This document shows, one piece after another, positions 7,865 through 39,876 of a stretch of 64,000 bases of DNA. Below the pieces are notes generated by a model, which saw only the letters and a list, made by a program, of their open reading frames with translations, ran no database searches and was not told the origin of the DNA. How positions within the stretch are numbered: position 1 is the stretch's first letter; the number at the start of each line of letters is the position of its first letter. Source of the stretch: Escherichia phage KIT01. Made by a program: the position numbers and the translations under genes. The stretch lies in the sequence record AP019521.1; one strand, 5' to 3'.

Positions 7865-7899
7865 GGACCATTATACTCTGGTCCCAAGAGTTTGTAAAC
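7865..7899 (-). promoter_or_regulatory. early sigma70-type promoter with inverted repeat flanking the -10 (PeSL-like)
   Basis: minus strand GTTTAC(7894-7899)-17 nt-GTATAA(7871-7876); GGACCA/TGGTCC arms. Confidence 0.5.
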
Positions 7900-8099
7900 T
7901 ATTTTTGTGCTTTGGCGCCTTTCCAACCTTCATACATCATTCCGGCGGAAATTAACAAAGCACCCGAGCAACTTGAATACTTGTGATTCCAAAACCAGTT
8001 TAGAAAAACTTCGTCATCAATACCTTGAGCTATCATATTTTCAAAGAACTGACGACGAGCTTCAGCAATTCGCTGTGATAATTTAGATTCAGGATTCAT
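7899..8099 (-). CDS. hypothetical protein
   Basis: 66-aa ORF. Confidence 0.4.
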   Translation of the reverse strand: MNPESKLSQRIAEARRQFFENMIAQGIDDEVFLNWFWNHKYSSCSGALLISAGMMYEGWKGAKAQK

Positions 8100-8231
8100 T
8101 TAAATTTTCCAATTGCCATTTTCATCAATGAATTTAACCCAGTCATTTACTGACCACTTGGTTGTATCGCCTTTTGGACTAACATTTAAAGTGTATAGTC
8201 CTTGCTTAAAAAGCATTCGTTTGATATTCAT
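8100..8231 (-). CDS. hypothetical small protein
   Basis: ATG at 8231 preceded by GAGGAAAA; track ORF 8100..8324 overlaps neighbour out of frame. Confidence 0.3.
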   Translation of the reverse strand: MNIKRMLFKQGLYTLNVSPKGDTTKWSVNDWVKFIDENGNWKI

Positions 8232-8238
8232 ATTTTCC

Positions 8239-8532
8239 TCAGCTGTAACGATAACACTCGTTTGATTTACGTTTTGCAACTTGATGAGAAGTATTGTAAT
8301 CAGGTTCATCGTCGTTGTAAACATCTTTTTTCAGCTTTCTCACTTCTTTACGAAGTTGGCGATTCATTTCATTCTTAACTTCAGAGTCAACGCCTCTCAT
8401 ACGTTTCCACTTGTCGGAACGGAAGATATTTTCTTCAACCAAATCCTGACTTACGCCGACCGGTGCTTTACGACGTCCGGAATAATAAAAATCTTTTACA
8501 GACAATTCTTTACGACGAATAGTTTTACCCAT
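8239..8532 (-). CDS. hypothetical basic protein
   Basis: 97-aa Lys/Arg-rich ORF. Confidence 0.45.
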   Translation of the reverse strand: MGKTIRRKELSVKDFYYSGRRKAPVGVSQDLVEENIFRSDKWKRMRGVDSEVKNEMNRQLRKEVRKLKKDVYNDDEPDYNTSHQVAKRKSNECYRYS

Positions 8533-8534
8533 AG

Positions 8535-8789
8535 TTACCTCAGCAGTTTGTATCCAATAAGATTTTTAATGTATTGGACATCTTTGACATCCAAATCTAA
8601 CTTAATATCTTTCAGGCGTTCAGCCAGAGTAAGAAATGTTACACGTTTCCAATTCTTAACAGGGCAGCAATAAGTTTTCGGGCCGTTAGCGATTTCAATA
8701 TTTTTATCAGTGATGGTGAGAAAAATCAGGCGCTCATCATCCAGATTAAGTGTGACGATATTTTTCATTGAATGTAATTTCAGGCTCAT
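8535..8789 (-). CDS. hypothetical protein
   Basis: 84-aa ORF. Confidence 0.45.
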   Translation of the reverse strand: MSLKLHSMKNIVTLNLDDERLIFLTITDKNIEIANGPKTYCCPVKNWKRVTFLTLAERLKDIKLDLDVKDVQYIKNLIGYKLLR

Positions 8790-8968
8790 AATTTGATTTC
8801 CTTAGCTATTGAACAAAACACGCTACGGTCACATACCATCATTGGAATATTTCTATGGTCTAGTACACGATACCATACGTCTGAATCGCTAGCAGCAATT
8901 ACACGAACCGCACGCCCATTTACCAAATAATACTGGTCGGCTTTAATTTCTTTATCTTGGATAGTCAT
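8786..8968 (-). CDS. hypothetical protein
   Basis: 60-aa ORF with GAGGAGAA RBS; first gene after a PeSL-like promoter. Confidence 0.45.
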   Translation of the reverse strand: MTIQDKEIKADQYYLVNGRAVRVIAASDSDVWYRVLDHRNIPMMVCDRSVFCSIAKEIKL

Positions 8969-8974
8969 AATGTT

Positions 8975-9026
8975 CTCCTCATGTGTTGGTAGGATAGACT
9001 ATAACACGTGAGGAGAGGAAGTAAAC
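8975..9026 (-). promoter_or_regulatory. early promoter with SD-pairing inverted repeat (PeSL-like)
   Basis: GTTTAC(9021-9026)-17 nt-TATAGT(8998-9003); arms CTCCTCATGTG(8975-8985)/CACGTGAGGAG(9005-9015). Confidence 0.5.
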
Positions 9027-9027
9027 A

Positions 9028-9345
9028 CTAATCTTCAATTAAATCTCGGTCATAACCAAGTTCAATCAAAAGTGATTTGAAGGTAGGAATATTTTCTATT
9101 TTCTTATTATCGACAAATATGACAGGATAGCGTATCGCTAAGCTCTTGAAGCCGGCACGTTTGGCCAATGATACTATAAGAGGCTTGTCATATACTGCGC
9201 CTGACGGCGTCTGGTTAATCACGGGATAGAAAGTATGTGGGATAGAAAGGGAATTTAGGAGCGATAGAACTGCAATGCACCCTGGACAGCGCATGACTGT
9301 CTCAGGGATGCCGTAGATTTCGATTTTAGTTAACTTTTGGTCCAC
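9028..9345 (-). CDS. thioredoxin-fold protein (glutaredoxin/NrdH-like)
   Basis: IEIYG...RCPGC active-site-like CxxC and YPVIFVDNKKI motif typical of glutaredoxins. Confidence 0.5.
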   Translation of the reverse strand: MDQKLTKIEIYGIPETVMRCPGCIAVLSLLNSLSIPHTFYPVINQTPSGAVYDKPLIVSLAKRAGFKSLAIRYPVIFVDNKKIENIPTFKSLLIELGYDRDLIED

Positions 9346-9622
9346 AGGAAATAACTCCTTGGTAGTCCCATGTTTTTAGAACTTCGTCTTCATTAGTTCC
9401 GTATGGGACGTAAACCTGTACAAGAAAACCTGTGTCATCGAAAGAGAAATAAACTGTCGGTTTGATTCCGTGAATCTCTGATAGAGCATAGATGTCTTTA
9501 AGGTCTTCTTCCTTACCGACAAAGAATTCCGGGTTCAGGTCACAGTCATGGAAGTACCAATCATCACCGAACTTGTCCCATGCGGTCCAATTCAAAGCTA
9601 CATATTCTTCAAAACGTTTCAT
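9326..9622 (-). CDS. hypothetical protein
   Basis: 98-aa ORF. Confidence 0.45.
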   Translation of the reverse strand: MKRFEEYVALNWTAWDKFGDDWYFHDCDLNPEFFVGKEEDLKDIYALSEIHGIKPTVYFSFDDTGFLVQVYVPYGTNEDEVLKTWDYQGVISCGPKVN

Positions 9623-9846: not shown

Positions 9847-9955
9847 ATGTTAGTTACAACAAATAACCATTGAGCAGGATACTCAACACCCATAATACGT
9901 ACCACATCGTTCAGAGATTCGGCTAAAGCATAAAATGTGTAGCCATAAAAATTAA

Positions 9956-10949: not shown

Positions 10950-11238
10950 CAGAATACCTCATCAGAAAAGCGAAGTTGAGCTTCAAGCCAATGGATATAG
11001 TCAGCGGCAGCTTTAATCAAATCGGATTCTAGGTCAGGTAAAGAACCTGAATCCGACAACTCGTAAAGCGAATGTTCAATCAGACGGCCCTTATGACGGC
11101 CAACTTCAATTTTGGTACTCATATCCAAACTCCATATCGATTAAATCATTGTTTGAAGGTTCATTATACTCTATTTCGGAATCATTGTAAACCGGTTCCT
11201 CTGGCTCGGTAGTTTCCCACCGAGCGACATACCATGGC

Positions 11239-12689: not shown

Positions 12690-13696
12690 TTCAGCAGCTC
12701 CAGAGCCTGTTCAAGACGGTCTAAACGATTGGTAGACTCTTCCCAAAGTTTCTTGGCAGCAGTATATTGCCCGGTCAGTTTTTTGTTGATAGCAAGGGCA
12801 TCTTTATACGCTTTTTCTAAGGCAACGACTTCTGGTAACTTGGATTTAGTAATTGGTGTAGGGGCCATGATAGGGCTGTTCAAGTCGTTAATCAAGTCTT
12901 CTAATGTAGCAGGCTCTTTATCAGTGTTCACAATTTCCTCACATTTTTCTTGGTAAATTTCAGCATCAGTTTTTGGAACGGTATATTTGATTTCACGGAC
13001 TGTTACTAAAACTTCATATCCTTTCCAGCCTAAGTGGTGTTTAACTTCTTGGGTCTCATATTTCTCTACGGTATCCATCAGAGCTAAAGCTTGTTCGATA
13101 GTATTCAAGGTATCGTAAGCAATATCTTGATACTTTACAACTTCCGCATCATCTTTAGGTTTCCTATTAGGTGACCAAATAACAGAAATAATAGCTTTTC
13201 CTTTATAACTATTTGTTTTAATCATGCAATTAGCCAGCGGGTGAATAGTACGACAATCACCGGAAACTATAGTTTTAGAGGCCGCTTTGAGAATTAATGC
13301 AGAGTTAGCCTTGAATTCGCTAACCCAACGTTGCGGAAATAAACTACTAGGGTCCATACCTTTAATTTTGACATAATCTTTTATGGTATCACCAAACCAT
13401 TTGTAGCTAACAACATGGCTAGAACCCGGATATTTCTCTTTACCGAACTCAGAAAGGATGTCCTTATTGACCAGACGCGAAAGAAGTCGAGAACCTTTAA
13501 ATGTATCTACGATATCAGAAATAAACAAACGGCCTGCGATCTTTTCGATTTCAGCTTTGAAACAGCGCGATAATGCATCATCAATTTGGTCGACCCATTT
13601 ATTGATATTAGAAACTATTACCACATATGGGGTTAATGGAGGGGTGTTGGCAGTGATATACGTAGTAAAGGCATTGATGTATTCAGTACGAGTCAT
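12686..13696 (-). CDS. hypothetical protein with C-terminal coiled coil
   Basis: 336 aa; GAGGAGAA RBS; C-terminal [13 protein letters not shown]. Confidence 0.55.
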   Translation of the reverse strand: MTRTEYINAFTTYITANTPPLTPYVVIVSNINKWVDQIDDALSRCFKAEIEKIAGRLFISDIVDTFKGSRLLSRLVNKDILSEFGKEKYPGSSHVVSYKWFGDTIKDYVKIKGMDPSSLFPQRWVSEFKANSALILKAASKTIVSGDCRTIHPLANCMIKTNSYKGKAIISVIWSPNRKPKDDAEVVKYQDIAYDTLNTIEQALALMDTVEKYETQEVKHHLGWKGYEVLVTVREIKYTVPKTDAEIYQEKCEEIVNTDKEPATLEDLINDLNSPIMAPTPITKSKLPEVVALEKAYKDALAINKKLTGQYTAAKKLWEESTNRLDRLEQALELLK

Positions 13697-13723
13697 GATA
13701 TTCTCCTCAAGTTGATAGAAAGA

Positions 13724-13752
13724 TTATACTCCATCCATCCTTGGATGTAAAC
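13724..13752 (-). promoter_or_regulatory. early sigma70-type promoter
   Basis: GTTTAC(13747-13752)-17 nt-GTATAA(13724-13729) upstream of 12686..13696. Confidence 0.5.
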
Positions 13753-15697: not shown

Positions 15698-15763
15698 AAT
15701 AATAATTTCCTCAGTAAGTAATTAAGAACCTAGAACCATTATACCATCCTTGGTATAAAGCGT

Positions 15764-16288
15764 TTATGCGAGAACCGTCTTTAAACGCTCTTCAAATTTC
15801 TGAAGCAGAGCTTGGCGTTCAGCTCGTTGTGATTTGTACTGCTCGATACGACCTGAAGTGAGGGCGTACTGTTCGTTTACTGATTCCCGCATGAATTCAG
15901 GAATCTCTTTACAAGCTTTGATTTCGTCAAACTTATCAATAACAGCTTGTTGTTCAGCAATCAGATTATCGAAATAAGCGATATCAGATTTAACGTTTGC
16001 CAGGTCGGATTCGGTAGGCATTAAACGTTTGTTACGTTCAGCTTGATAAGCCTGATTGGTTTCACGACTCCAGTGAAGAGTACGTTTTTTGTTAGTGTTT
16101 TTATAGAGCTCTACAATACCAACTGAATCGATGACTGCAATCCAGTTCCAACGGCTTTTGTAAATCTCTCCTCCGGATACGGTAATCTCATTACCACAAG
16201 CAACATCGTTAAAGAACTTGCTTTGTTTTTCAGATTTGAAATTACCGTTGTTGAAATTAATCAGTGAAAAAATATCTTTAGCGTTCAT
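15764..16288 (-). CDS. hypothetical protein with C-terminal coiled coil
   Basis: 174 aa; GGAGG RBS; C-terminal RQALLQKFEERLKTVLA. Confidence 0.5.
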   Translation of the reverse strand: MNAKDIFSLINFNNGNFKSEKQSKFFNDVACGNEITVSGGEIYKSRWNWIAVIDSVGIVELYKNTNKKRTLHWSRETNQAYQAERNKRLMPTESDLANVKSDIAYFDNLIAEQQAVIDKFDEIKACKEIPEFMRESVNEQYALTSGRIEQYKSQRAERQALLQKFEERLKTVLA

Positions 16289-16294
16289 GATAAC

Positions 16295-16343
16295 CTCCAG
16301 TAGTTGATAGGTCTATAGTATCATTTCTACTGGAGATGTAAAC
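16295..16343 (-). promoter_or_regulatory. early promoter with SD-pairing inverted repeat (PeSL-like)
   Basis: GTTTAC(16338-16343)-17 nt-TACTAT(16315-16320); arms CTCCAGTAG(16295-16303)/CTACTGGAG(16327-16335). Confidence 0.55.
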
Positions 16344-16696: not shown

Positions 16697-17677
16697 TTAT
16701 TTCAGAAGGGTAACTTCAGCGATTTCGCTCCAGTCATTTTTATCGGTGGCAATGAAGTCCGCCAGATAAAGAGCTGTACGTAATGATACGTTACGAAGAC
16801 GAGATACATTAGCCTTCATCCATGCTAAAGCTTGATAAGTCTCAGCATCAGTCAGACCTCGATTTTGCATCATATCAGTGGACAGGATAACGTCTTCAAC
16901 ACGAACCATAATCTCTTCGTTAGAGTGAACTCCGAGGTCTAAGTAAACTGAACGAGATACTAAAGCCTGGAGGTGTGGAGCAAGTTTAGTTCCACGCTCT
17001 AATTCACGGTCGATATCAACGTTGGTGATGAACACGATGGTGCCTTCGTATTCAAATTCTTTATCGATATTTTTATCATCGAGGTAAGAACTTGAAGTGC
17101 TCCAGCACACCTTACGTTTTTCACCTGTATCCAATGCCGCTTTTAACAGGTTCAGGATATCCATATCAGAGAATACATCAACATCATCAATAAGAAGAAC
17201 ACTATTAGGGCCGCGGTTATTCCAAAGCTGCTCGTAAAGACCGATTCCACTAATCTTTCCGTTGATTGATTTATATTCGATAGTTTCATTTTCGTGGGCA
17301 TTTTGTAATGCTTTATCCAAAGAATACGTTTTACCAATACCTGCGGCACCAGAGATGATAAGGGAACGAATTTTACCATCGATGATTCCGTTGGTCATCA
17401 TGTTCATTACTTTAAAACGTTTGTTAATGCGATGTTTCATTTCTTCAGCGGATTCAGTAACCATTGCAGGAGCTTCAGCACCTTCCATTTCAACGTCACA
17501 TTTGAACACCCATACACCACGTTCAACACCATCAATCTGTACGAATACCTTGCCATCACCGAGGTGAGCTTCGGATTCATGAATTTTGTTAGGGAACCAG
17601 GTTTTACCTGAACTCATGAACGTACCAGAGATTTCATTACCGCGATAGATGCCTTTGTTGATTTTGATAGTTAACAT
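16697..17677 (-). CDS. AAA+ ATPase of unknown function
   Basis: Walker A ISGAAGIGKTYSL, Walker B VLLIDDVD, sensor FITNVD; ATG at 17677 after GGAGAA (track ORF starts further upstream). Confidence 0.65.
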   Translation of the reverse strand: MLTIKINKGIYRGNEISGTFMSSGKTWFPNKIHESEAHLGDGKVFVQIDGVERGVWVFKCDVEMEGAEAPAMVTESAEEMKHRINKRFKVMNMMTNGIIDGKIRSLIISGAAGIGKTYSLDKALQNAHENETIEYKSINGKISGIGLYEQLWNNRGPNSVLLIDDVDVFSDMDILNLLKAALDTGEKRKVCWSTSSSYLDDKNIDKEFEYEGTIVFITNVDIDRELERGTKLAPHLQALVSRSVYLDLGVHSNEEIMVRVEDVILSTDMMQNRGLTDAETYQALAWMKANVSRLRNVSLRTALYLADFIATDKNDWSEIAEVTLLK

Positions 17678-17714
17678 TATATTCTCCATTTCACTCAGTA
17701 GATTTGATAGGTCC

Positions 17715-17743
17715 ATAATAACATGCTCTACGAGAGTGTAAAC
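17715..17743 (-). promoter_or_regulatory. early sigma70-type promoter
   Basis: GTTTAC(17738-17743)-17 nt-TATTAT(17715-17720) upstream of the AAA+ ATPase gene. Confidence 0.5.
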
Positions 17744-17762
17744 TCTTTTTTGCACTAAACCC

Positions 17763-17784
17763 AAAAAGGCCCGAAGGCCTTTTA
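17763..17784 (-). terminator. rho-independent terminator (structurally bidirectional)
   Basis: AAAGGCC-CGAA-GGCCTTT hairpin flanked by A/T runs immediately after the nucleotidyltransferase stop. Confidence 0.55.
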
Positions 17785-20330: not shown

Positions 20331-20567
20331 TCACCAGTATTTGTTGATAGTAGAAATTAATTCTTGGGCTTGGGTAGTCTTCAGTTTACATCCACAACCC
20401 TTTAATGTGTCTTTAAGGAGCCACGGTTCCTTGAGCTCGTCCTTTTCTAGACGAATTCTGTATCCTCGATAATCGGCGAAGATACTTCGGTCGTCGAATA
20501 TCTTAATCTCAAGGATACGGCCATTGATTTCGTATTCTAATGAAACCGTAGTACTCGTAAGTTTCAT
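20331..20567 (-). CDS. hypothetical protein
   Basis: 78 aa; GAGGAGAA RBS; first gene after PeSL-like promoter. Confidence 0.45.
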   Translation of the reverse strand: MKLTSTTVSLEYEINGRILEIKIFDDRSIFADYRGYRIRLEKDELKEPWLLKDTLKGCGCKLKTTQAQELISTINKYW

Positions 20568-20595
20568 ATTGTTCTCCTCATTAGTTGATAGGTCT

Positions 20596-20624
20596 ATAGT
20601 ATCATGTTCCTAGAGGATGTAAAC
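20596..20624 (-). promoter_or_regulatory. early promoter (PeSL-like)
   Basis: GTTTAC(20619-20624)-17 nt-TACTAT(20596-20601); TCCTC/GAGGA arms pairing SD region. Confidence 0.5.
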
Positions 20625-20664
20625 ACCTAAACGAAAAAAGGTCCCACCGAAGTGAGACCTTTGA

Positions 20665-24028: not shown

Positions 24029-24487
24029 TTAAAGATAGATTACTTTCGTGCTGGTTTTACCTTCTAAACGTTTAGAGTTAACAAATGCCATACGACATTT
24101 AAGGGAATATCCTTTATCAGGATGTTTACGGTCTACGGTCATACCCAACCATAAGGTTTTATCGGTAATTTCGAGACGCAACGGGCGATACACTTTACCA
24201 GGGACAATTTCGGATTCAACATCAGGCAGAGGTTCCTGGATTAAGAATTCATGAATTTCTTTAACATGGATATGGAGTTGCTTGAATAAAGCAAAAACGT
24301 ATTTTTCGTCGATTTCACGTTGGATAGCACGGTCCAACAAGTGATTAGAGTACTTAATAAAGAAGGCTGGGACTCCGCTCTTAATGGCGGCTTTTTTGAT
24401 GGACGCATTCAGTTCACGGAATTCGGTTTCGAACTGACGACGTAATTTGTTGCGGCGGATGAATACTTCTGAATTAATTTCTGACAT
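24029..24487 (-). CDS. regB: site-specific endoribonuclease RegB
   Basis: 152 aa; EVFIRRNKLRR...KYSNHLLDRAIQREIDEKYVF...LRLEITD matches T4 RegB. Confidence 0.85.
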   Translation of the reverse strand: MSEINSEVFIRRNKLRRQFETEFRELNASIKKAAIKSGVPAFFIKYSNHLLDRAIQREIDEKYVFALFKQLHIHVKEIHEFLIQEPLPDVESEIVPGKVYRPLRLEITDKTLWLGMTVDRKHPDKGYSLKCRMAFVNSKRLEGKTSTKVIYL

Positions 24488-24494
24488 TTTGTAA

Positions 24495-24544
24495 TCTCCT
24501 GTAGATGATAGGTCTATAGTACCACGTCTACAGGAGATGTAAAC
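24495..24544 (-). promoter_or_regulatory. early promoter with 11-bp perfect inverted repeat pairing the regB SD (PeSL-like)
   Basis: GTTTAC(24539-24544)-17 nt-TACTAT(24516-24521); arms TCTCCTGTAGA(24495-24505)/TCTACAGGAGA(24527-24537). Confidence 0.6.
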
Positions 24545-25860: not shown

Positions 25861-26021
25861 AGGTGTCTCTTAGTTGGTGGGGCCGTTCCTTGGCACATAA
25901 TTCATCCATGTATCCGTATGTAAACCCTTTACCGCACTTGGGCTCGACCTTATTACAGGTAGGGAAAGGTCCATCACTCAGAGGACGCGACGTTCATGAG
26001 GAGAGGGCCGGCTTGCCTTTA

Positions 26022-26321
26022 TTAGAAAGAACCAGAACCTTTAATTGTGTTCTGACGACCTTTATTTTCCAATTCGGAGTGGTCGATTTCATATGCTTGT
26101 GCTACGCCAAAGGCCTTTTTAACTTTAGCTAAAGAACCTTTAGATGTAACAATATTAAAAGTATTACCTTTGGTAAAATCAACCAAATCCACTTGTACAC
26201 CCTGCTTGCCGAGGCTTGCTACAATAGCATCAACATATTGTTGGTCTAAAGTACCTTGGACGCCAATTTGAAATGCTTTAGGAGCTTTGGCTTCTGTAAT
26301 AAATTCTTGATAAGTTTTCAT
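26022..26321 (-). CDS. capsid-targeted internal protein (CTS leader)
   Basis: N-terminus MKTYQEFITE matches the T4 internal-protein capsid-targeting leader ending at Glu10. Confidence 0.55.
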   Translation of the reverse strand: MKTYQEFITEAKAPKAFQIGVQGTLDQQYVDAIVASLGKQGVQVDLVDFTKGNTFNIVTSKGSLAKVKKAFGVAQAYEIDHSELENKGRQNTIKGSGSF

Positions 26322-26329
26322 ATTAAGCC

Positions 26330-26689
26330 TTAAAGATGGTCTAGTGCTGGGTTATGAGGTTTTTCTGCTTTAGTAGTGTTTTTATGCCAATCTGATTTAG
26401 AAACACGGATGGCATCAGCGCCATAAGAACTCTTAAGGAGACCTTTTTTATTGTACACGCTTATTGAAGTAAGAGAATCACCATTCCATGTAGCATGAAT
26501 GAAGTTAGATTTAGATTTAAGTTCTTTAGCCAAGCTCTGGTTAGTGGCCATGGAAGCAAAGTCTTTACCTGTAACTTTAAAAACTTCAGATGGGTTCAGC
26601 CCTTCTTTAGCCTTAGCCAATTGTTCAGGAGACATAGCTTCGTTAATGCGCTGAGTAGATTCAGTAATAAATTGTTGGTAAGTTTTCAT
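26330..26689 (-). CDS. capsid-targeted internal protein (CTS leader)
   Basis: N-terminus MKTYQQFITE; AAGGAA RBS; cotranscribed with the next CTS gene. Confidence 0.55.
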   Translation of the reverse strand: MKTYQQFITESTQRINEAMSPEQLAKAKEGLNPSEVFKVTGKDFASMATNQSLAKELKSKSNFIHATWNGDSLTSISVYNKKGLLKSSYGADAIRVSKSDWHKNTTKAEKPHNPALDHL

Positions 26690-26731
26690 ATTATTCCTTA
26701 AGTTGATAGAAGTATTCTATCACGGATTTAA

Positions 26732-27148
26732 TTAAGCGTAAATAGCCTTGCCGTAATGTTTGTACCAGGTAGGACGCTGTGCAATTTTTTCGTCCAAACG
26801 GGCTTGTGAAATGGCGATAGAAGCTTCGTGTGGAGTATAATCACCACGGAATTCCTGAGGAATATCACTAATGTCCTGGACCGTAGTATCCTTGATATTA
26901 AAACCACGTTTTAAACATTCCGCTATAAGCTCGATTTGACGTTTACGTAAAAACTCAAGCTTATCATAAAAGAAAGTAACATGGCCTGTACCAAGGATAA
27001 AAGTAGAGCTAATTTTAAAATCACGAACACGTTTACCATTAGCAACATGCTTACGAACTGCACCGAAAACACGTGGCAATTCACGATATTCAGCCATTAA
27101 GTGTTGGTCAGCCAATTCAGATACTAAGGTAAGGTTGATACGAGTCAT
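26732..27148 (-). CDS. denV: endonuclease V (pyrimidine-dimer DNA glycosylase) DenV
   Basis: [29 protein letters not shown]... matches T4 DenV; ATG 27148 after GGAG. Confidence 0.85.
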
Positions 27149-27177
27149 TTTAGTGTTCTCCATGTTTGTATGAGAAC

Positions 27178-27206
27178 ACTATATCACAGCTATTGTAAAA
27201 GTAAAC
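27178..27206 (-). promoter_or_regulatory. early promoter upstream of denV
   Basis: GTTTAC(27201-27206)-17 nt-TATAGT(27178-27183); GTGTTCTC/GAGAACAC inverted repeat in leader. Confidence 0.5.
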
Positions 27207-27208: not shown

Positions 27209-27511
27209 TTATTTAGCTTTAATTGCTTTAGCTGCTTCGGTAGCCGCTTGCTGAAGGTCATCCATAGACATACCGAACTTAGAAGCAAAGTTATCAATTT
27301 TCTTTTCGACAGAATTCAAAGGCTTGGCCTGTTTACCTTCATTAGCGCCCGGGAGAGCGAGAATACGCTCTTTGTCAATATAAAGGCTTACAAGTTTCTT
27401 ACGGTCTTTATCCGACAAATCATGAAATGAATGGGCCTTTTTATTTACAGCGGCTTCTAATTTACCTGCGGTTACGCGGGCTTCAGTGATAAATTCTTGA
27501 TAGGTTTTCAT
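27209..27511 (-). CDS. ipII: internal protein II-like (CTS leader)
   Basis: 100 aa; MKTYQEFITEARVTAGKLEAAVNKKAHSFHDL... resembles T4 IPII; position between denV and e. Confidence 0.6.
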   Translation of the reverse strand: MKTYQEFITEARVTAGKLEAAVNKKAHSFHDLSDKDRKKLVSLYIDKERILALPGANEGKQAKPLNSVEKKIDNFASKFGMSMDDLQQAATEAAKAIKAK

Positions 27512-27563
27512 ATGTTTCCTTAAAGGTAAATATTTTAATTGGTATGTTCAAGTAACTGTAGAT

Positions 27564-27592
27564 ATACTATCACAATTCTAGGAGATGTAAAC
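27564..27592 (-). promoter_or_regulatory. early promoter upstream of ipII-like gene
   Basis: GTTTAC(27587-27592)-17 nt-TAGTAT(27564-27569). Confidence 0.45.
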
Positions 27593-27991: not shown

Positions 27992-28472
27992 ATGCTTTCC
28001 AAGTACCTGTTTTAAATGTAGAAATCACGCGCTTAGCACGATTAGGAGTTTGTTTATACCAACGGGATTGAGCCAGGTTAACTGCCGCATCGTTCCAACG
28101 TTTCTGTCGGAGCATACGTAAAGAGTTAGTGAACCCTGCTACACCTGCTTCACCCATTTGGAAGACCATGTTAATTAAAGCACAACGACGAACTTCGTCC
28201 AATACATCGTAAACAGGTTTCAATTTAGGATTACGCAGAATAGCTCTACGAGCATTTTCAACCGATCGGTTAAAGAGTTGTTCAGCTTCAGCCATAGTAA
28301 TACGTCCATTGCAAACTCGACCCATAAGCTTATCAAGTTCAGCCCGAGCAACATCTTTAGAAGGATTCTTAGTAATCAATTGGCCAATACCAATAGTCCA
28401 ATAACCTTCGGTGTCTTTATAAAGATTTAAATCAAGACCTTCGTCTTGACGTAACATATCAAAAATATCCAT
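27978..28472 (-). CDS. e: lysozyme (endolysin) gp e
   Basis: 164 aa; [35 protein letters not shown]... matches T4 lysozyme. Confidence 0.9.
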
Positions 28473-28474
28473 AA

Positions 28475-28502
28475 TACCTCCTGAGTATAGGAGGTATTTA
28501 TA
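28475..28502 (-). promoter_or_regulatory. SD-sequestering hairpin plus late promoter TATAAATA for gene e
   Basis: palindrome TACCTCCT-GAGTAT-AGGAGGTA (28475-28496) contains the e RBS; minus-strand TATAAATA at 28495-28502. Confidence 0.55.
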
Positions 28503-28952
28503 TCAAAAGAGCGAATCTAAAACCTTAAACATCGACGGGCCCATGACATATTCCCATTGCGGACGTTTAATCAAAGCAAAAGCATCGAATTCAGGAATCG
28601 TGCGACCATCAGGGAACGTATGGTAAGCTGTACATTTGCAATCCTTGAACTGCTCGTGTTCCACAGGCACCGTATATAAGAACAGGTGTAGATTCTTATT
28701 GCTTGAATATTTGAACTCACCTAGGTCTTTCAGGAACGCAGGATCGTATGCTGTGAATCCAATCTCTTCTTCGGTTTCACGCATTGCCGCTTGAATAGGC
28801 TCTTCGCCTGGTTCGACATGACCTTTAGGAATGTCCCATTTATGACGCATATTCTCTGGATTACGAGAGCCTGTTACACGACCCATAACTAGTTCTTTAT
28901 CAACGGTCATGAACAAAATACCTGCCGATAATTCCTTAGCTTTCTTACTCAT
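28503..28952 (-). CDS. nudE: Nudix hydrolase NudE (e.1)
   Basis: 149 aa; Nudix box GHVEPGEEPIQAAMRETEEEIG. Confidence 0.75.
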   Translation of the reverse strand: MSKKAKELSAGILFMTVDKELVMGRVTGSRNPENMRHKWDIPKGHVEPGEEPIQAAMRETEEEIGFTAYDPAFLKDLGEFKYSSNKNLHLFLYTVPVEHEQFKDCKCTAYHTFPDGRTIPEFDAFALIKRPQWEYVMGPSMFKVLDSLF

Positions 28953-30469: not shown

Positions 30470-30682
30470 TTACTTTTTGTTGAAAAAGTACATTTTACCT
30501 TTAGGAGATAAGGATACACGAAGTGCGTTACCAATACCAACTGAACATTTAACCAGGTCAGCAGATTTCAATTCACCAAATGCTTGACGAAGGTCACCAT
30601 CACGAGTGTTAACCATCAGGCATTTAGCACCAGCTGCACGAACTTCGTTTAACATGTTGATTGCTTGGTTAGAAAGTTTCAT
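30470..30682 (-). CDS. hypothetical protein
   Basis: ATG 30682 (MKLSNQ...) after GGAGAATAAA; the upstream in-frame ATG is part of the SD. Confidence 0.45.
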   Translation of the reverse strand: MKLSNQAINMLNEVRAAGAKCLMVNTRDGDLRQAFGELKSADLVKCSVGIGNALRVSLSPKGKMYFFNKK

Positions 30683-30713
30683 TTTATTCTCCATTTCACT
30701 CTGTTGTTTTGAT

Positions 30714-30748
30714 AGGTCTATAGTATCACACCTATAGACCTTGTACAC
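30714..30748 (-). promoter_or_regulatory. early promoter with 10-bp perfect inverted repeat (PeSL-like)
   Basis: GTGTAC(30743-30748)-17 nt-TACTAT(30720-30725); arms AGGTCTATAG(30714-30723)/CTATAGACCT(30732-30741). Confidence 0.5.
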
Positions 30749-31739: not shown

Positions 31740-31979
31740 TTAAATTTCAGCAACGTAATCGTTATGCAATTCCCACATATCATCAGAATTATTCTTAATG
31801 ATAGGAATTATCTCATTAGAGATTTCTTCTGCATAAGGGTCATTGATACAGTGAGCATCTTCAAAACGAACACCGTAATCAGACTTCTTATAGGCAAAGC
31901 CATAAATCTTTTTAAACTTGGCACGGGTAATGCGTACCGGTTCATTAGACTTATCAGACAACGGAGAGTAATACCACAT
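31740..31979 (-). CDS. hypothetical protein
   Basis: 79-aa ORF. Confidence 0.4.
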   Translation of the reverse strand: MWYYSPLSDKSNEPVRITRAKFKKIYGFAYKKSDYGVRFEDAHCINDPYAEEISNEIIPIIKNNSDDMWELHNDYVAEI

Positions 31980-32022
31980 ATGTTCTCCTCATGTTTGTGT
32001 ATGGTAATAGTAACACGATTTT

Positions 32023-32352
32023 CTAGAGTTGTACATCACTTCTGCAATATTCTAAAAATAATTTATCATTGTCTACAGTATCCCAACGACGCCAAGATGG
32101 ATTCCAGACCAGAGCGTTGTCACCACAATCATTGAGCTTAAAATGGTCGTAGTACATAGCTATATGTCTAGTTTCGTCACCAGAGAACCCTAGTATAGGC
32201 TCACCGTGGGTGTGATACATATGATGGTGCATTGAGAGGTCGCATTTGTAAAACATCTCACGTTTACCACGAACGAACAAGAAAGCTTGCCCATTCATAT
32301 AGAATTCTTTATCTGTTTTCAAAAGATATTTGAATACTGAATCTTTGTGCAT
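32023..32352 (-). CDS. His-rich hypothetical protein (possible metal-binding)
   Basis: ATG 32352 after AGGAGG; contains MHHHMYHTHGE cluster. Confidence 0.45.
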   Translation of the reverse strand: MHKDSVFKYLLKTDKEFYMNGQAFLFVRGKREMFYKCDLSMHHHMYHTHGEPILGFSGDETRHIAMYYDHFKLNDCGDNALVWNPSWRRWDTVDNDKLFLEYCRSDVQL

Positions 32353-34564: not shown

Positions 34565-35158
34565 TTACTTAAGTGAATTAATGTAGTCGTCGATATCGGC
34601 AGAAGTCGTATCCATTCCAACTTGCGGGCCTTTAAACGTTTCTACACGCAGTAGGGTGTCTTCAATATCAATCTTAGTCAGTGCAGCGATTTCAACAACA
34701 TCATCGGCAGTAGCAATACCAAGGGCAGCCATATTACGAGTTTCACGGATATACTCGAGCTTAACGGCCAGTTCCTGACGAGAGTCATCAAGTTCCTTAA
34801 CCTTCAGTTTAATTTCATTACGCATTTCGATATAATCATCAGCTTTCTTACGAAGCTGAGTAGCTGTACGACGATAAAGGAGGCCAAGTTTAGCATGTAC
34901 CTGGACATCAGCGCCTTCGGCAATCAGTTTACGAATTTCACGTTCTTTAGAAGCAGCGAGCTGGTCCTTTTCATTAGCCAATGCACGAATACGTTTTTCT
35001 TCATTCACGGACTTAACATGAGCAGTCTGGAGTTCAGTAATTTTATCAATCAGGGTAGAAGCAGCTTTGGTGTATTGGTCTTCGATTGACAGGTTCTGAG
35101 TCATCGCGGTGCCCAGTTTAGAACGAATGAATTCAACGATTTTCTTTAAAGTGTTCAT
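34565..35158 (-). CDS. coiled-coil protein (PspA/IM30-like architecture, tentative)
   Basis: 197 aa almost entirely heptad-like charged helix; GAAGGAAA RBS; first gene after a PeSL-like promoter. Confidence 0.45.
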
Positions 35159-35195
35159 AGTATTTCCTTCAGTTGGTTAACGTTTTGTAATCCAT

Positions 35196-35231
35196 GAGGA
35201 CATTATACCCTGTCCTCTGAGGGTTGTAAAC
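35196..35231 (-). promoter_or_regulatory. early promoter (PeSL-like)
   Basis: GTTTAC(35226-35231)-17 nt-GTATAA(35203-35208); GAGGACA/TGTCCTC arms. Confidence 0.5.
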
Positions 35232-35234
35232 ATT

Positions 35235-35636
35235 TTATTTCATTTTTGCTAGGCAGATTTCATTGGCTTCCCATTGAGCTTGCTTAATAATAGCTTTGGA
35301 TACAGGAACCCTTTGGCCATAAATTTTTGACGTTGAGAGAACAATATATTTGTTTGCCTCATTATGCCATCCTACTGATTTTTCGCCATGAGTACCTTTA
35401 ACTACAGCAGACACCTCAACAGAGCAGCCATCAGAACTAATCTTGGTGTCTACAATCCATTCATTTCTCTCGGCAGCTTCAATTTCCGATCTCATTTTTT
35501 CTTCATACATGGCTGCCCAATCAGTTTTCGCCAAGTTGAAAGTAAGAGCTTTCTCTAATTCTTTGGCGGCTTTTTGTTGTTCAGGTGTTAATGAATTATA
35601 CAACTCTTGCATTTCTTTATCTTCGATATTCATCAT
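35235..35636 (-). CDS. hypothetical protein
   Basis: 133 aa; GAGGAGA RBS. Confidence 0.5.
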   Translation of the reverse strand: MMNIEDKEMQELYNSLTPEQQKAAKELEKALTFNLAKTDWAAMYEEKMRSEIEAAERNEWIVDTKISSDGCSVEVSAVVKGTHGEKSVGWHNEANKYIVLSTSKIYGQRVPVSKAIIKQAQWEANEICLAKMK

Positions 35637-35653
35637 GCTCTCCTCAAATTATA

Positions 35654-35689
35654 GGGCTCATAATATCTTAATCATGAGCCCATGTAAAC
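35654..35689 (-). promoter_or_regulatory. early promoter (PeSL-like)
   Basis: GTTTAC(35684-35689), -10 near 35660-35666; GGGCTCAT/ATGAGCCC arms. Confidence 0.45.
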
Positions 35690-35692
35690 ATT

Positions 35693-35956
35693 TTATTTCA
35701 TATTATTGAAATAATCTTCTGCATCAAAATCGTTATCATGATAAACTTTGGTAGACGATTTGGCGTAGCCTTCAGCTGAGAACATATTAATCACAACTTT
35801 AATTGTATACCACTGTCCATCTTCATTACCCATTACTGCATAGGTTTCATACACTGGGTGTTCAGGACCGATAACTTTAATATCGTTAACAGTAGCACCA
35901 AATTCTTCAGGAACGCATTTCATAAAGAAATTAAACAATTCACCATAATTATCCAT
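35693..35956 (-). CDS. hypothetical protein
   Basis: ATG 35956 (MDNYGELF...) after AAGGAGAG; track ORF begins at an upstream GTG. Confidence 0.5.
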   Translation of the reverse strand: MDNYGELFNFFMKCVPEEFGATVNDIKVIGPEHPVYETYAVMGNEDGQWYTIKVVINMFSAEGYAKSSTKVYHDNDFDAEDYFNNMK

Positions 35957-35962
35957 TTTACT

Positions 35963-36020
35963 CTCCTTCACACTGTTGTTTTGATAGGTCTATAGTATCA
36001 TGTTTAAAGGAGGTGTAAAC
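35963..36020 (-). promoter_or_regulatory. early promoter (PeSL-like)
   Basis: GTTTAC(36015-36020)-17 nt-TACTAT(35992-35997); CTCCTT/AAGGAG arms. Confidence 0.5.
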
Positions 36021-36079
36021 AACTTTGTGAAATTATTTTTAGTTTAAACCCCCAAAAAGGAGACCGAAGTCTCCTTTCA

Positions 36080-36688: not shown

Positions 36689-36716
36689 TGGTATTTCCTA
36701 AGTTAATTAACTTATC

Positions 36717-36752
36717 TATTTATACAAAAAGCCCAACCTTTCGGAAGGGCCG
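36717..36752 (-). promoter_or_regulatory. terminator hairpin fused to late promoter TATAAATA (module copy 1)
   Basis: minus strand: hairpin (36726-36752) then T-run overlapping TATAAATA (36717-36724), 29 nt upstream of ATG 36688. Confidence 0.55.
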
Positions 36753-36756
36753 TGAA

Positions 36757-37311: not shown

Positions 37312-37337
37312 ATTATTTCCTAAGTTAGTTTACTACA

Positions 37338-37376
37338 TATTTATACAAAAAAGGCCCAACCTTTCGGAAGGGCCTT
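37338..37376 (-). promoter_or_regulatory. terminator hairpin fused to late promoter TATAAATA (module copy 2)
   Basis: near-identical to copy 1: hairpin 37351-37376, TATAAATA at 37338-37345. Confidence 0.55.
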
Positions 37377-37383
37377 TAACCTA

Positions 37384-37756
37384 GGGTAACCTTGTCGGGG
37401 TTCCACCTGCTAGGCAAGTGTTTGTACGAAACGCCAGGATTCGAACCCGGTTATTAAGTAGTTGACGCTACTCAATATTTTTAAAAGGCCATATCTCGAC
37501 CATATCCGAACGTTCCGTCAAAAACGCTACTCGGCTTACGGCAAAGATATTTCCTCGAATCGATAATTAGGTGCGCCGTTTCTGCTGTGATGTAAGGGGA
37601 CGTTAACAGATCGTAAAGATTTGTTAATGCCAGTCCTTACTCAGGGAACATCAGTCCGACGACTTACCGGTAGCGACCCGGTTTCTTGTTTGTTGCGCCG
37701 GTGAATGCTGGTAATCAGTCTTCATACGACGGCTTGACTATATAATAGTCTTCATT
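37384..37756 (-). ncRNA. structured non-coding RNA region downstream of the tRNAs (possible small stable RNAs, includes a tRNA-like T-arm)
   Basis: no ORF; GGTTCGAATCC T-loop-like element near 37432-37447 with acceptor-like pairing but no standard anticodon arm; bounded by terminator at 37351-37376. Confidence 0.3.
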
Positions 37757-37831: not shown

Positions 37832-37836
37832 GTAGT

Positions 37837-37913: not shown

Positions 37914-37918
37914 TTAAA

Positions 37919-38185: not shown

Positions 38186-38297
38186 AAACACCTCAAATAA
38201 AATTAAGTAAAGTAAGTTTGATTAATAGACTTTGTCTATTATGAAAGGTTCTTTGAGGGAAGAACCTTTGGTAATAGAGGGTATTAATGATAGAGTA

Positions 38298-38322
38298 ATA
38301 ATAACACATTACTCTTAAAGCA
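38298..38322 (-). promoter_or_regulatory. candidate MotA-dependent middle promoter
   Basis: minus strand TGCTTTA (38316-38322) 12 nt upstream of TATTAT (38298-38303) in a 170-nt ORF-free region with two hairpins. Confidence 0.3.
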
Positions 38323-38359
38323 TATTACTATTTTTAGGAATAGTCTGGTCAAATTTGAT

Positions 38360-38650
38360 TCATTGTGGCCACATATTAATGTAATCAAGTTTAATAGAAG
38401 CAATCTTCAAAGGATTTTTAAAGATGTCGTATTCGATCAATCCGTTTTCAGTTGCGGTGTAGAAAGTAAAGTTAACAGAATTATAACGGCGACCATTAAC
38501 TTTTAGTTTAACGTCGCTTGAACTACGACCAATATTAACCTGTTGGACATCAAGCACAGCACCTTTGCCAAAGTTGCGAATCAGTAGCTCTGCTGCAACC
38601 TGGTCTGAATTATAGCCATTCTCTGGATTAGTAACCTTAACGTATAGCAT
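38360..38650 (-). CDS. hypothetical protein
   Basis: 96-aa ORF. Confidence 0.45.
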   Translation of the reverse strand: MLYVKVTNPENGYNSDQVAAELLIRNFGKGAVLDVQQVNIGRSSSDVKLKVNGRRYNSVNFTFYTATENGLIEYDIFKNPLKIASIKLDYINMWPQ

Positions 38651-39058
38651 TTAACCCTCGTCTACAATAGTATGGGTATTAGCATTAACAATCTGCCACC
38701 AGTCACAGTCAAAACGATTAGAACCGTAACGAGGCTTTTTCTCATTTTCGTTAATAATATCACGTAGTTCGTCTTCAGAAAATGCTTTAGCGATTAAATC
38801 GGTATAGCCGCCACGTGGATAATAGTTATCACCTGCGAACAGAAGGAAATTTACTTTACCAGAAGGAACATATGCTTCCTTAGAGTACTTGTTTCCTGCA
38901 TGGTCTACCACTTCAATATAACGATAAGGGATATCGGTACTTTCAACCCATTGCCAAGCTGCAGCAGGGGATTCAAAAGCATCTACACCTAAACGGTTAT
39001 CTTCATCTTTAGACGGATTATTTTCATAATCCGCATATACATAATATTCAACGTTCAT
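38651..39058 (-). CDS. hypothetical protein
   Basis: 135-aa ORF. Confidence 0.5.
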   Translation of the reverse strand: MNVEYYVYADYENNPSKDEDNRLGVDAFESPAAAWQWVESTDIPYRYIEVVDHAGNKYSKEAYVPSGKVNFLLFAGDNYYPRGGYTDLIAKAFSEDELRDIINENEKKPRYGSNRFDCDWWQIVNANTHTIVDEG

Positions 39059-39243
39059 TATTCACCTTTAGAGATTTTATCCATAACGAAAGAAATTGAA
39101 CCAATTAAGAATGCCACTACTAAAGAGATTATATTCTCTGAAGTTGAAAGCATATCGAGCATGAATCCTGCAAACATACTAAAGCCAAAAGCAGTAACAG
39201 CGGCCAGTGCAGTAACATTTCTAATTAATTCACAACGTTTCAT
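39058..39243 (-). CDS. small membrane protein
   Basis: ATG 39243 (MKRCELIR...) after GGAGAATAAA; hydrophobic helices. Confidence 0.4.
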   Translation of the reverse strand: MKRCELIRNVTALAAVTAFGFSMFAGFMLDMLSTSENIISLVVAFLIGSISFVMDKISKGE

Positions 39244-39279
39244 TTTATTCTCCAATCACTCATTTGTTTTGATAGGGCT

Positions 39280-39309
39280 ATAGTACCATCACTAAAGCCC
39301 GTTGTAAAC
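39280..39309 (-). promoter_or_regulatory. early promoter (PeSL-like)
   Basis: GTTTAC(39304-39309), -10 near 39280-39286; GGGCT/AGCCC arms. Confidence 0.45.
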
Positions 39310-39311
39310 AA

Positions 39312-39584
39312 TTATTTTAAATAAATTGCATATTTTTTATAACCAGCCGTCTCGTGACGCAGTCCTTTTTCATTAGCAAAACGTTCAATATTGTTAATTT
39401 GATTCTGGTCGAGTTCTGAAGTATCAAAAACAAAAAAGTTTCGCTTATTGCCTAAAGTTACGTGATTAGTCAAATCGATGTTATAGAGATGATTTATATC
39501 ATCAATCATAGTCTTAACAGATTTGTTAATTTTTACTTCTTCATTAAGAAGAGATTCAGCGATAAATTCTTGGTATGATTTCAT
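39312..39584 (-). CDS. capsid-targeted internal protein (IPI position)
   Basis: 90 aa; N-terminus MKSYQEFIAE; adjacent to 57B as T4 ipI. Confidence 0.55.
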   Translation of the reverse strand: MKSYQEFIAESLLNEEVKINKSVKTMIDDINHLYNIDLTNHVTLGNKRNFFVFDTSELDQNQINNIERFANEKGLRHETAGYKKYAIYLK

Positions 39585-39585
39585 T

Positions 39586-39810
39586 TTATTCAGCGCCAGC
39601 GGCTTTCAAAAGTTTTTTAAGGTTGGCTATGCCGCCAGCAGAAAACGTGACCTTGCCACCTTTTTCATTGATAGAGCCAGTCAATTTAGCAAGCTTATCA
39701 CTAGGGACTTTTTTAAAATCAGCCAGTGTGCCATCAAAGGTTTTTGTAACAATTGGCAGTTCATCTTCATGTCTTTTAGCTTCGGTGATAAATTCTTGAT
39801 AAGTTTTCAT
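39586..39810 (-). CDS. capsid-targeted internal protein (CTS leader)
   Basis: ATG 39810 gives MKTYQEFITEAKR...; GGAGAATAAA RBS. Confidence 0.55.
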   Translation of the reverse strand: MKTYQEFITEAKRHEDELPIVTKTFDGTLADFKKVPSDKLAKLTGSINEKGGKVTFSAGGIANLKKLLKAAGAE

Positions 39811-39841
39811 TTTATTCTCCATTTCACTCTGTTGTTTTGAT

Positions 39842-39876
39842 AGGTCTATAGTATCATGCCTATAGACCTTGTAAAC
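39842..39876 (-). promoter_or_regulatory. early promoter with 10-bp perfect inverted repeat (PeSL-like)
   Basis: GTTTAC(39871-39876)-17 nt-TACTAT(39848-39853); arms AGGTCTATAG(39842-39851)/CTATAGACCT(39860-39869). Confidence 0.55.

Follow-up and report, generated by a model that had tools for sequence, protein, structure and literature searches.

What is the short module that recurs before minus-strand genes throughout the early region of Escherichia phage KIT01, and do the inverted repeats within it have a function of their own? We analyzed a stretch of 64,000 nucleotides (nt) of this phage (sequence record AP019521.1), referred to below as the window, in which a sequence-only reading had listed 16 copies and called them PeSL-like early-promoter cassettes. 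With a probability of roughly 60%, they are best explained as sigma-70 early promoters fused to standard leaders, the hairpin arms of which would act only in RNA read through from upstream, either as gates of the ribosome site or as marks bracketing the -10 element, and which would occasionally serve as recombination substrates.

Promoter cassettes at minus-strand gene junctions

All 16 positions indeed sit in minus-strand modules composed of GTTTAC(A), a spacer, a TAnnAT -10 element, a Shine-Dalgarno sequence, and ATG. Scanning with a position matrix made of the -35 heptamer and the 10-mer around the -10 (cut-off score at least 15) returned 18 minus-strand sites, i.e., the listed 16 and two more with -35 starts at 32036 and 11192, and no score above 13 on the plus strand of the window; first-order Markov simulations yielded 2.6 matches per strand even at a threshold of 10. 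Leave-one-out scores ranged from 11 to 25.5, with site 26743 scoring lowest (11.0), in agreement with the earlier description of the copy at 26700-26725 as a weaker one. Searching strictly for GTTTAC-N17-TATAAT with one mismatch was too narrow, recovering only four sites, and a generic sigma-70 scan (TTGACA/TATAAT) remained at chance (56 observed vs. 55 expected), so that the signal belongs specifically to the T4-type consensus. The cassettes also emerged from an independent repeat finder, as families D1-D3 and D5.

The order of elements is an A/T-rich stretch, GTTTAC(A), the spacer, usually TGn, TAYTAT or TATAAT, often AGACCTATCAA, the leader, a GGAG ribosome site, and ATG. The A+T fraction at -36 to -60 varies between 0.40 and 0.92 and is at least 0.68 at 13 of the 18 sites, compared with 0.61 for the whole window. 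The spacer length of 17 nt given in the sequence-only reading applies to 11 sites, the remaining seven having 18 nt. TGn, the mark of an extended -10, is found in 12 of the 16 listed sites; the four lacking it combine an 18-nt spacer with TATAAT or TATTAT. As for the proposed ending GGAG(A)ATAAA-ATG, three sites have GGAGAATAAAATG and a few others something close to it, and 14/18 cassette genes contain GGAG itself in their ribosome-site window vs. 9/80 other genes (P = 5e-8).

As had been claimed, the cassette supplies the ribosome site and the start codon of the downstream gene, which we found for 18 of 18 in the window. Their placement relative to gene starts is nonrandom, all 18 being intergenic and just upstream of minus-strand genes, with the -35 located between 14 nt inside the end of the upstream gene and 59 nt past its stop. 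When the window is taken together with every fetched locus, 232 of 244 matrix matches are followed by a ribosome site and ATG, at a median of 24 nt from the predicted +1 to the ATG.

Megablast assigned the window to the genus Dhakavirus (91-95% identity to JS10, JS98, C6, MX01, Bp7, and IME08, over 72-95% of two query blocks), i.e., to the JS98/JS10 group, and the relatives named previously (RB49, phi1, JSE) belong to the wrong group. Its minus-strand genes run in the order 46/47, 55, nrdH, 49, nrdC, tk, vs, regB, denV, internal-protein genes, e, nudE, e.x genes, tRNAs, 57B/57A, 1, 3, 2, and 4, and this block ends at ~43.3 kb, beyond which baseplate genes occupy the plus strand. Counting the motif in relatives, as the sequence-only reading had proposed, gave 14-19 sites each in MX01, JS98, C6, and VR5 with the same matrix, at matching junctions and exclusively on the minus strand. 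Within the 42 kb of T4 that are syntenic, the motif precedes 14 genes (ipI, trna.4, e.8, e.7, e.6, ipIII, denV, regB, mobD.5, nrdC.10, nrdC.8, nrdC.4, pin, and 55.6), again with none on the plus strand. These shared sites identify the cassettes as the set of T4 early promoters in its Dhakavirus form. Published accounts describe T4 early promoters as a class with UP, -35, and TGn elements, a -10, and further conserved positions (Hinton 2010, PMC2988021), a typical early promoter is reported for T4 regB (PMC3014915), and the T4/PST PeSL consensus is TTTACW-N17-TAYWAT (PMC4122927); the designation as PeSL-like early-promoter cassettes agrees with both consensus descriptions.

Host RNA polymerase would recognize the A/T-rich upstream stretch, GTTTACA, TGn, and TAYTAT and would start transcription at the A in ATCAA, ~7 nt beyond the -10. 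The predicted product is an essentially unstructured leader of 17-46 nt from start to ATG in the 18 window cassettes, ending in the GGAG ribosome site and ATG. This site, often GGAGAAYAAAA, would be of the kind cut by RegB to shut off early messages. RegB cleaves early ribosome sites at GGAG, also cleaves the message encoding it, and is inhibited by secondary structure (PMC3014915, PMC1702504); its strong RegB/S1 consensus is GGAGRAYARAA (PMC3014915), cut as GG*AGRAYARAA (Durand 2006, PMC1702504). With at most one mismatch, this consensus is present in 6/18 cassette genes vs. 0/80 others (P = 2e-5). The enrichment is consistent with RegB targeting of cassette genes, which would explain the conserved 3' end of the cassette. 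The regB gene (24029-24487; product 97-99% identical to RegB of other Dhakavirus phages) is itself encoded behind one of the cassettes.

Two further minus-strand sites resemble parts of this architecture. At 15698-15765, a Mot-box-like GCTTTA-N12-TATAAT precedes the homologue of nrdC.6; the leader of this gene and its MSQAI start are similar to those seen for the 55.2 homologue that follows cassette 7899. At 6912-6978, before gene 55, TGATATAATAGACCTATGA stands with an extended -10 and the same downstream box, without a -35.

Inverted repeats and a predicted spacer/ribosome-site helix

In RNA read through from the -35 to the ATG, the cassettes form hairpins of -11 to -20 kcal/mol, with z-scores (z) down to -5.2, and RNA from the predicted +1 folds at only 0 to -2.2 kcal/mol. 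Hairpins of -11 kcal/mol or stronger are found in 12-13 of the 18 cassettes. As the 5' arm lies upstream of the predicted start in every structured cassette, the hairpin is possible only in RNA read through from an upstream promoter. In class A (39876, 39309, 35689, 35231, 30748, and 7899), a spacer arm has its partner in the 6-11 nt that follow the -10; in class B (24544, 16343, 9026, 36020, and, weakly, 20624), the spacer arm pairs with the ribosome site; a third arrangement, with an arm at -9 to -1 pairing with the ribosome site, is seen at 27206 (denV) alone. The cassettes are listed below, named by their -35 start, with the matrix score, the minimum free energy (MFE) of the read-through RNA from -35 to ATG in kcal/mol, and, where given, the fraction of the ribosome site unpaired in read-through and own-promoter RNA; helix lengths are in base pairs (bp).

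39808..39876, minus strand: cassette of an internal-protein gene (ip8-like, MKTYQEFITE); score 26.0; class A hairpin AGGTCTATAG/CTATAGACCT around the -10; ribosome site GGAGAATAAAATG; MFE -16.5, z -4.1, RNA from +1 0.0
39241..39309, minus strand: cassette of the trna.4 homologue; score 25.8; class A hairpin GGGCTTTAG/CTATAGCCC, a compensated variant of the 39876 hairpin; MFE -14.4
35954..36020, minus strand: cassette of the e.8 homologue; score 26.0; class B, moderate, spacer CCTCCTT with AAGGAGAG at the ribosome site; MFE -11.4; unpaired 0.29 and 0.85
35634..35689, minus strand: cassette of a conserved hypothetical gene (T4 e.7 position); score 22.1; class A 11-bp hairpin GGGCTCATGAT/ATTATGAGCCC; MFE -17.8, z -4.2
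35156..35231, minus strand: cassette of the e.6 homologue; score 23.1; class A hairpin GAGGACA/TGTCCTC flanking TATAAT
31977..32036, minus strand: cassette absent from the earlier list; -35 ATGTACA, TGT-TACTAT; score 17.0; weak pairing to the ribosome site; kept in all relatives
30680..30748, minus strand: cassette of a conserved hypothetical gene; -35 GTGTACA; score 23.2; class A; MFE -15.4, z -3.1; 52 nt exactly identical to cassette 39876
27509..27592, minus strand: cassette of an ipII-like internal-protein gene; score 24.5; long leader of 46 nt; no significant hairpin (z +0.6)
27146..27206, minus strand: cassette of denV; score 20.3; 5' arm AGTGTTCTC at -9..-1 pairs with GAGAACACT, ribosome site included; MFE -14.5, z -3.3; unpaired 0.09 and 0.86
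26687..26743, minus strand: weak cassette of an internal-protein-like gene; ATTTACG, TAGAAT; leave-one-out score 11.0
24485..24544, minus strand: cassette of regB; score 26.0; class B 12-bp helix ATCTCCTGTAGA/TCTACAGGAGAT from promoter spacer to ribosome site; MFE -20.1, z -3.9
20565..20624, minus strand: cassette of a conserved hypothetical gene; score 26.0; weak class B (TCCTC/GAGGA)
17675..17743, minus strand: cassette of the nrdC.10 homologue; score 23.3; spacer pairs with the leader (CACTC..GTAGA/TCTAC..GAGTG) instead of the ribosome site
16286..16343, minus strand: cassette of the nrdC.8 homologue; score 26.0; class B 11-bp helix TCTCCAGTAGA/CTACTGGAGG; MFE -18.3, z -3.7; unpaired 0.02 and 0.73
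13694..13752, minus strand: cassette of the nrdC.4 homologue; score 20.1; 18-nt spacer, TATAAT, no TGn; weak structure
11120..11192, minus strand: cassette absent from the earlier list, of a pin-like gene; GTTTACA-N17-TATAAT; score 19.9; no hairpin; matching T4 site before pin
8966..9026, minus strand: cassette of the 55.6 homologue; score 18.3; class B helix CTCCTCACGTGTT/AACACATGAGGAG; MFE -18.8, z -5.2; unpaired 0.04 and 0.65
7828..7899, minus strand: cassette of the 55.2 homologue; score 19.9; class A hairpin GGGACCA/TGGTCC flanking TATAAT; MFE -14.7, z -2.1

Junctions with a cassette show more structure than the 80 gene junctions without one (-13.1 vs. -9.8 kcal/mol, P = 0.003). To examine the complementarity of the arms, the cassettes of the window, of five syntenic loci, and of 47 IMG/VR stretches were pooled, which gave 160 unique ones, clustered on the spacer and the last 23 nt into 62 families. 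Across these families, the duplex energy of the spacer with its own downstream part averages -10.5 vs. -7.5 +/- 0.31 for permuted partners (z -9.8, P < 5e-5). Pairs of arms that are unrelated to each other in sequence yet complementary include AGGTCTATAG/CTATAGACCT, GGGCTTTAG/CTATAGCCC, GATAGGGTA/TACCCTATC, CAGGGTA/TACCCTG, GGGAACAT/ATGTTCCC, and, from T4 ipI, CTGATGAGGTA/TACCTCATCA. The inverted repeat therefore exceeds chance and looks like a selected hairpin. A protein operator was ruled out, given that the arms differ in sequence and stay complementary.

At six sites (24544, 16343, 9026, 27206, 36020, and 20624), the ribosome site is unpaired at 0.02-0.29 in the read-through RNA vs. 0.60-0.86 in RNA from the own promoter. 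Pairing of the spacer with the ribosome site recurs in the regB leader, which we gathered from 13 T4-like genera, in nine of them. How the helix is extended differs among these, e.g., by TGTAGA/TCTACA in Dhakavirus, by TCTTGACTG/CAGTTAAGA in T4, by TTTTAGT/ACTAAAA in Kanagawavirus, and by TCTTTATG/CATAAAGA in Gelderlandvirus. Both sides are changed in 6/13 helix pairs, and covariation amounts to 0.34 vs. 0.144 +/- 0.033 for shuffled arms (0/500 reach 0.34) and 0.05-0.14 for slid partners, values that refer to arms which we extracted ourselves and anchored at CTCC and GGAG, which favors the chosen register.

The proposed model gives the spacer, or the stretch just past the -10, a second role as the 5' arm of a hairpin confined to read-through RNA. 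At ~6 sites (regB, nrdC.8, 55.6, denV, e.8, and, weakly, 20624) the 3' arm would be the ribosome site, and these genes would be translatable and open to RegB only on transcripts from their own promoter; masked read-through copies would escape RegB, since structure blocks the enzyme. In its most specific form, this is a predicted own-promoter-only gate in T-even early promoters, by which regB, denV, nrdC.8, and 55.6 would be translated and RegB-exposed only on their own immediate-early transcripts, and which would be conserved by covariation across at least nine Tevenvirinae genera. We put this form forward tentatively, as a possibility that is more doubtful than the general explanation. The six -10-bracketing hairpins would most likely mark or insulate the end of the upstream unit, by attenuation or as a protected 3' end.

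Besides the way in which the regB arms were extracted, several observations weigh against this explanation. The start ~7 nt past the -10 is inferred from spacing alone. Five or six cassettes (27592, 11192, 13752, 26743, and 32036) have little or no hairpin. The mean gain in ribosome-site accessibility upon 5' truncation is not significantly higher for cassette genes as a group than for other genes (0.29 vs. 0.19, P = 0.07), and only 3/18 cassette genes, vs. 2/80 others, have a ribosome site that forms a very strong duplex with sequence upstream of it (P = 0.04). The -10-bracketing hairpins lack a U tract, which makes their suggested role a guess. Finally, sense and antisense folding are about equal (P = 0.07; the P of 0.005 obtained for strong hairpins is biased, as these were chosen on sense-strand energy), so that roles at the RNA and at the DNA level are inseparable by this comparison.

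The absence of hairpins from several cassettes and the nonsignificant accessibility tests at group level would suit plain early promoters in which the inverted repeats are functionless remnants of the descent or copying of a cassette containing a palindrome with a CTATAG core; in fact, many cassettes share TACTATAGACCTATCAA, which includes this palindrome. We consider this quite improbable: the complementarity is specific to the own partner (z -9.8 above), wholly different arms stay complementary (e.g., GGGCTCAT/ATGAGCCC, GAGGACA/TGTCCTC, and GATAGGGTA/TACCCTATC), and the regB helix covaries in nine genera.

Terminators or attenuators insulating each unit from upstream transcription, the role proposed for the stem-loops in the original PeSL papers, would fit the stability of the -10-bracketing hairpins (-14 to -18 kcal/mol), and one RB49/phi1 stem-loop cut lacZ expression about as strongly as rrnB T1 (PMC2839356). 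A terminator scan, however, found a T-rich tail after one hairpin only (35681-35654), and three cassettes are directly preceded by a separate canonical terminator:

36056..36077, minus strand: intrinsic terminator GGAGAC-TTCG-GTCTCC followed by TTTTTGGGGG; before cassette 36020; repeat family D20
20637..20662, minus strand: intrinsic terminator AAAGGTCTCAC-TTCG-GTGGGACCTTT followed by a T run; directly before cassette 20624
17764..17783, minus strand: intrinsic terminator AAAAGGCC-TTCG-GGCCTTTT followed by a T run; directly before cassette 17743 (palindrome flagged on the plus strand by the scan and read as minus-strand)

This suggests that termination is supplied separately where needed. Moreover, termination cannot account for the ~6 cassettes whose 3' arm is the ribosome site, and as a general explanation we regard it as unlikely.

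Driven genes and recombination between cassettes

The sequence-only reading had further held that most driven genes lack a T4 counterpart and that the cassettes mediate modular shuffling of accessory genes. The first claim did not stand, since ~12 of the 18 carry T4 names by synteny with the annotated JS98, MX01, and VR5 (55.2, 55.6, pin, nrdC.4, nrdC.8, nrdC.10, regB, denV, ipII-like, e.6, e.8, and trna.4). All 10 of the remaining or hypothetical products tested fall into existing PHROG families, with no ORFan among them; judged by these assignments, the early region is rich in conserved hypotheticals rather than ORFans. Nor do the cassettes preferentially precede ORFans or variable genes, the first gene being variable in 5/18 cases vs. 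18/78 for other genes, which is not significant.

Synteny chains linking the window to MX01, JS98, C6, VR5, and a portion of JS10, in which overlapping alignments were allowed, yielded 46 unique indel or replacement events. An edge lies in a cassette zone in 16 of them, and both edges in nine. By area, 19 of 68 edge clusters fall into cassettes vs. 3.4 expected (P = 5e-10). Breakpoints generally lie at gene boundaries, and in a junction-controlled comparison the cassette junctions (10/18) do not differ significantly from other gene junctions (30/78; odds ratio 2.0, P = 0.14). Single genes between two cassettes are more variable than others (3/4 vs. 20/92, P = 0.04).

Individual events document exchange within the cassettes. 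In VR5, the 5' half of the e.8 cassette is fused to the e.6 leader, with window 35179-35977 deleted; in JS10, the e.8 cassette is fused at the ribosome site to the next gene, and e.8 is lost (window 35645-35949). JS98 has tandem nrdC.10 cassettes around an inserted gene (17765 and 18077 of its locus L003; window point 17705-17758) as well as a hybrid cassette combining the AGGTCTATAG spacer with the TATAGCCC box, and MX01 has a duplicated cassette around an extra internal-protein gene (38377 and 38761 of its locus L002; window point 39238-39288). Genes have also been re-headed: denV stands behind two unrelated cassettes across phages, a regB-like one in JS98, JS10, and VR5, and trna.4 behind a GATAGGGTA/TACCCTATC cassette in MX01 and a GGGCTTTAG/CTATAGCCC one in the window. 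Exact identity between cassettes extends up to 52 nt and reaches at least 20 nt in 10/153 pairs. Because of this shared identity, cassettes would now and then recombine homologously, adding, removing, or re-heading genes. T4 recombines at microhomologies of 6-10 bp (PMC9391042), which makes the cassettes sufficient, not necessary, substrates. The shuffling claim thus stands as far as hybrid and duplicated cassettes and the 16/46 events touching a cassette are concerned, and is weak in its enrichment over other junctions, which is not significant; judged from these alignments, the role of the cassettes is real but minor.

The same events bear on a reading that places the action of the inverted repeats at the DNA level, where cruciforms or hairpins would promote breakage and recombination, with the cassettes being primarily mobile recombination modules. 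Hybrid and duplicated cassettes, the nine events with both edges in cassettes, the enrichment by area, and the lack of sense/antisense asymmetry would all fit. We nevertheless hold it to be highly improbable, as the enrichment is gone against other gene junctions and 30/46 events lie elsewhere; the recombination junctions fall within stretches that cassettes have in common (-10 box, leader, and ribosome site), which is what homologous recombination of the ordinary kind gives; T4 recombines at microhomologies anyway; and the helices contain G-U pairs, e.g., in T4 regB. Hairpins acting in read-through RNA, with recombination as an occasional consequence of shared sequence, remain our preferred explanation.

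Other repeats of the region coincide with gene-content differences as well. MKTYQEFI(T/A)E or a close variant, an internal-protein targeting sequence (repeat families D4 and D6), starts seven minus-strand genes, with ATGs at 39810, 39584, 36688, 27991, 27511, 26689, and 26321. A 53-nt repeat at 27480-27532 flanks an extra 584-bp internal-protein gene in MX01 and C6, the coding repeat being a recombination site just as the cassettes are. The body of the gene starting at 26689 is unlike all relatives compared at the DNA level, and its product matches a PHROG family. A second repeated minus-strand module consists of an intrinsic terminator, GGCCCTTCCGAAAGGTTGGGC with a T run, directly followed by a late promoter, TATAAATA; its copies at 36714-36756 and 37337-37379 precede the genes starting at 36688 and 37311, and deletion edges of MX01, JS10, VR5, and C6 coincide with them.

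Elsewhere in the window, an insertion of ~850 bp at 4522-5373, where MX01, JS98, C6, and VR5 have 155-178 bp, holds a minus-strand open reading frame (ORF; 5370-4516, 284 amino acids) without a Pfam match. A plus-strand ORF within the minus-strand block (840-1562, 240 amino acids) is shared with MX01, whose annotation calls it a homing endonuclease, and is absent from JS98, C6, and VR5; its Pfam zinc-ribbon and HNH matches are all below threshold. An Rfam scan of the window returned two tRNAs and nothing else. Between an internal-protein-like gene and the vs.8 homologue lies a GC-rich noncoding stretch of ~160 nt (25861-26025, minus strand), which is without a match in Rfam, is no more stably folded than its shuffles (z -0.2), and includes one weak site resembling a promoter (score 10.2). 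Another ~440 nt of noncoding sequence (37312-37756, minus strand) lies 3' of two tRNA genes, at the place of RNA C/RNA D in T4, and contains the T-arm-like GGTTCGAATCC; Rfam and ARAGORN found nothing in it. Within this sequence, window 37423-37564 is missing in all five relatives.

Relation to known promoters and gates

With T4 early promoters, the Dhakavirus sites share GTTTAC(A), TGn, TAYTAT/TATAAT, the A/T-rich upstream stretch, extra conserved positions near the start, orientation, and gene junctions. They differ in the consensus after the -10, which is AGACCTATCAA in Dhakavirus and ACAACTATCAAC at many T4 sites. Their promoter activity is predicted from sequence. The 18 sites provide a ready early-transcription map for annotating a Dhakavirus, and T4 early promoter architecture and RegB-type ribosome sites are conserved junction by junction across genera.

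The PeSL elements (Arbiol 2010, PMC2839356; Comeau 2014, PMC4122927) are likewise repeated early-region composites of a strong promoter, a stem-loop, a ribosome site, and a start codon; in RB49 and phi1, as here, their stem-loops lie in the interval separating the -35 from the -10 or overlap the -10, and recombination between cassettes takes place at the -10, the leader, or the ribosome site. In contrast to the near-perfect TTGACA of RB49, the promoters of the window are of the T4/PST type, and JS98 is mentioned only in passing in these papers. The window cassettes mostly drive conserved T4 homologues rather than ORFans and, with gene boundaries taken into account, are only weakly linked to indels. 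This calls for caution regarding the PeSL hypothesis: cassettes recombine, yet most differences in gene content among close relatives lie elsewhere. Pairing of the spacer with the ribosome site falls outside the five published stem-loop placements, and translation is not discussed in those papers.

RegB/S1 sites (PMC1702504) share the GGAG ribosome site and an A-rich tract at promoter-proximal early genes, regB included. They differ in that the 11-nt consensus, with at most one mismatch, is reached by only 6/18 genes here, where cleavage is a prediction drawn from the sequence.

The cassettes themselves are of an already known type, represented by T4 early promoters and PeSL elements; the one feature that may be new is the covariation-supported spacer/ribosome-site helix. 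No description of such pairing in an early promoter was found in the accessible literature, which does not extend to older papers, notably Liebig and Ruger 1989. We consider the helix the most useful lead of this analysis; if it works as proposed, it would be relevant to the way in which immediate-early and delayed-early expression are kept apart in T4-like phages. If the predicted gate is true, the choice of promoter decides whether an early message is translatable, which would give immediate-early restriction an explanation at the level of sequence and would constitute an undescribed early counterpart of the late gate of gene e.

Long transcripts of T4 e, soc, 49, and I-TevI keep the ribosome site sequestered in a hairpin, and a late promoter is located inside that hairpin (PMC3014915). 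The window contains this classical T4 arrangement at gene e (28470-28512, minus strand), where the late promoter TATAAATA overlaps the 5' arm of an ACCTCCT/AGGAGGT hairpin sequestering the ribosome site (-14.1 kcal/mol, z -4.4). At the gene 4 homologue (43287-43345, minus strand), a GGCCTCC...GGAGGC hairpin (-20 kcal/mol, z -5.6) encloses the late promoter TATAAATA, sequesters the ribosome site, and looks like another late-promoter translational gate. The cassettes whose 3' arm is the ribosome site would be the early-promoter counterpart of these gates, with which they share own-promoter transcripts lacking the 5' arm. Whereas the known cases use late TATAAATA promoters, the cassettes carry early sigma-70-type elements with the spacer as the 5' arm, and the predicted restriction is to the immediate-early period instead of the late period.

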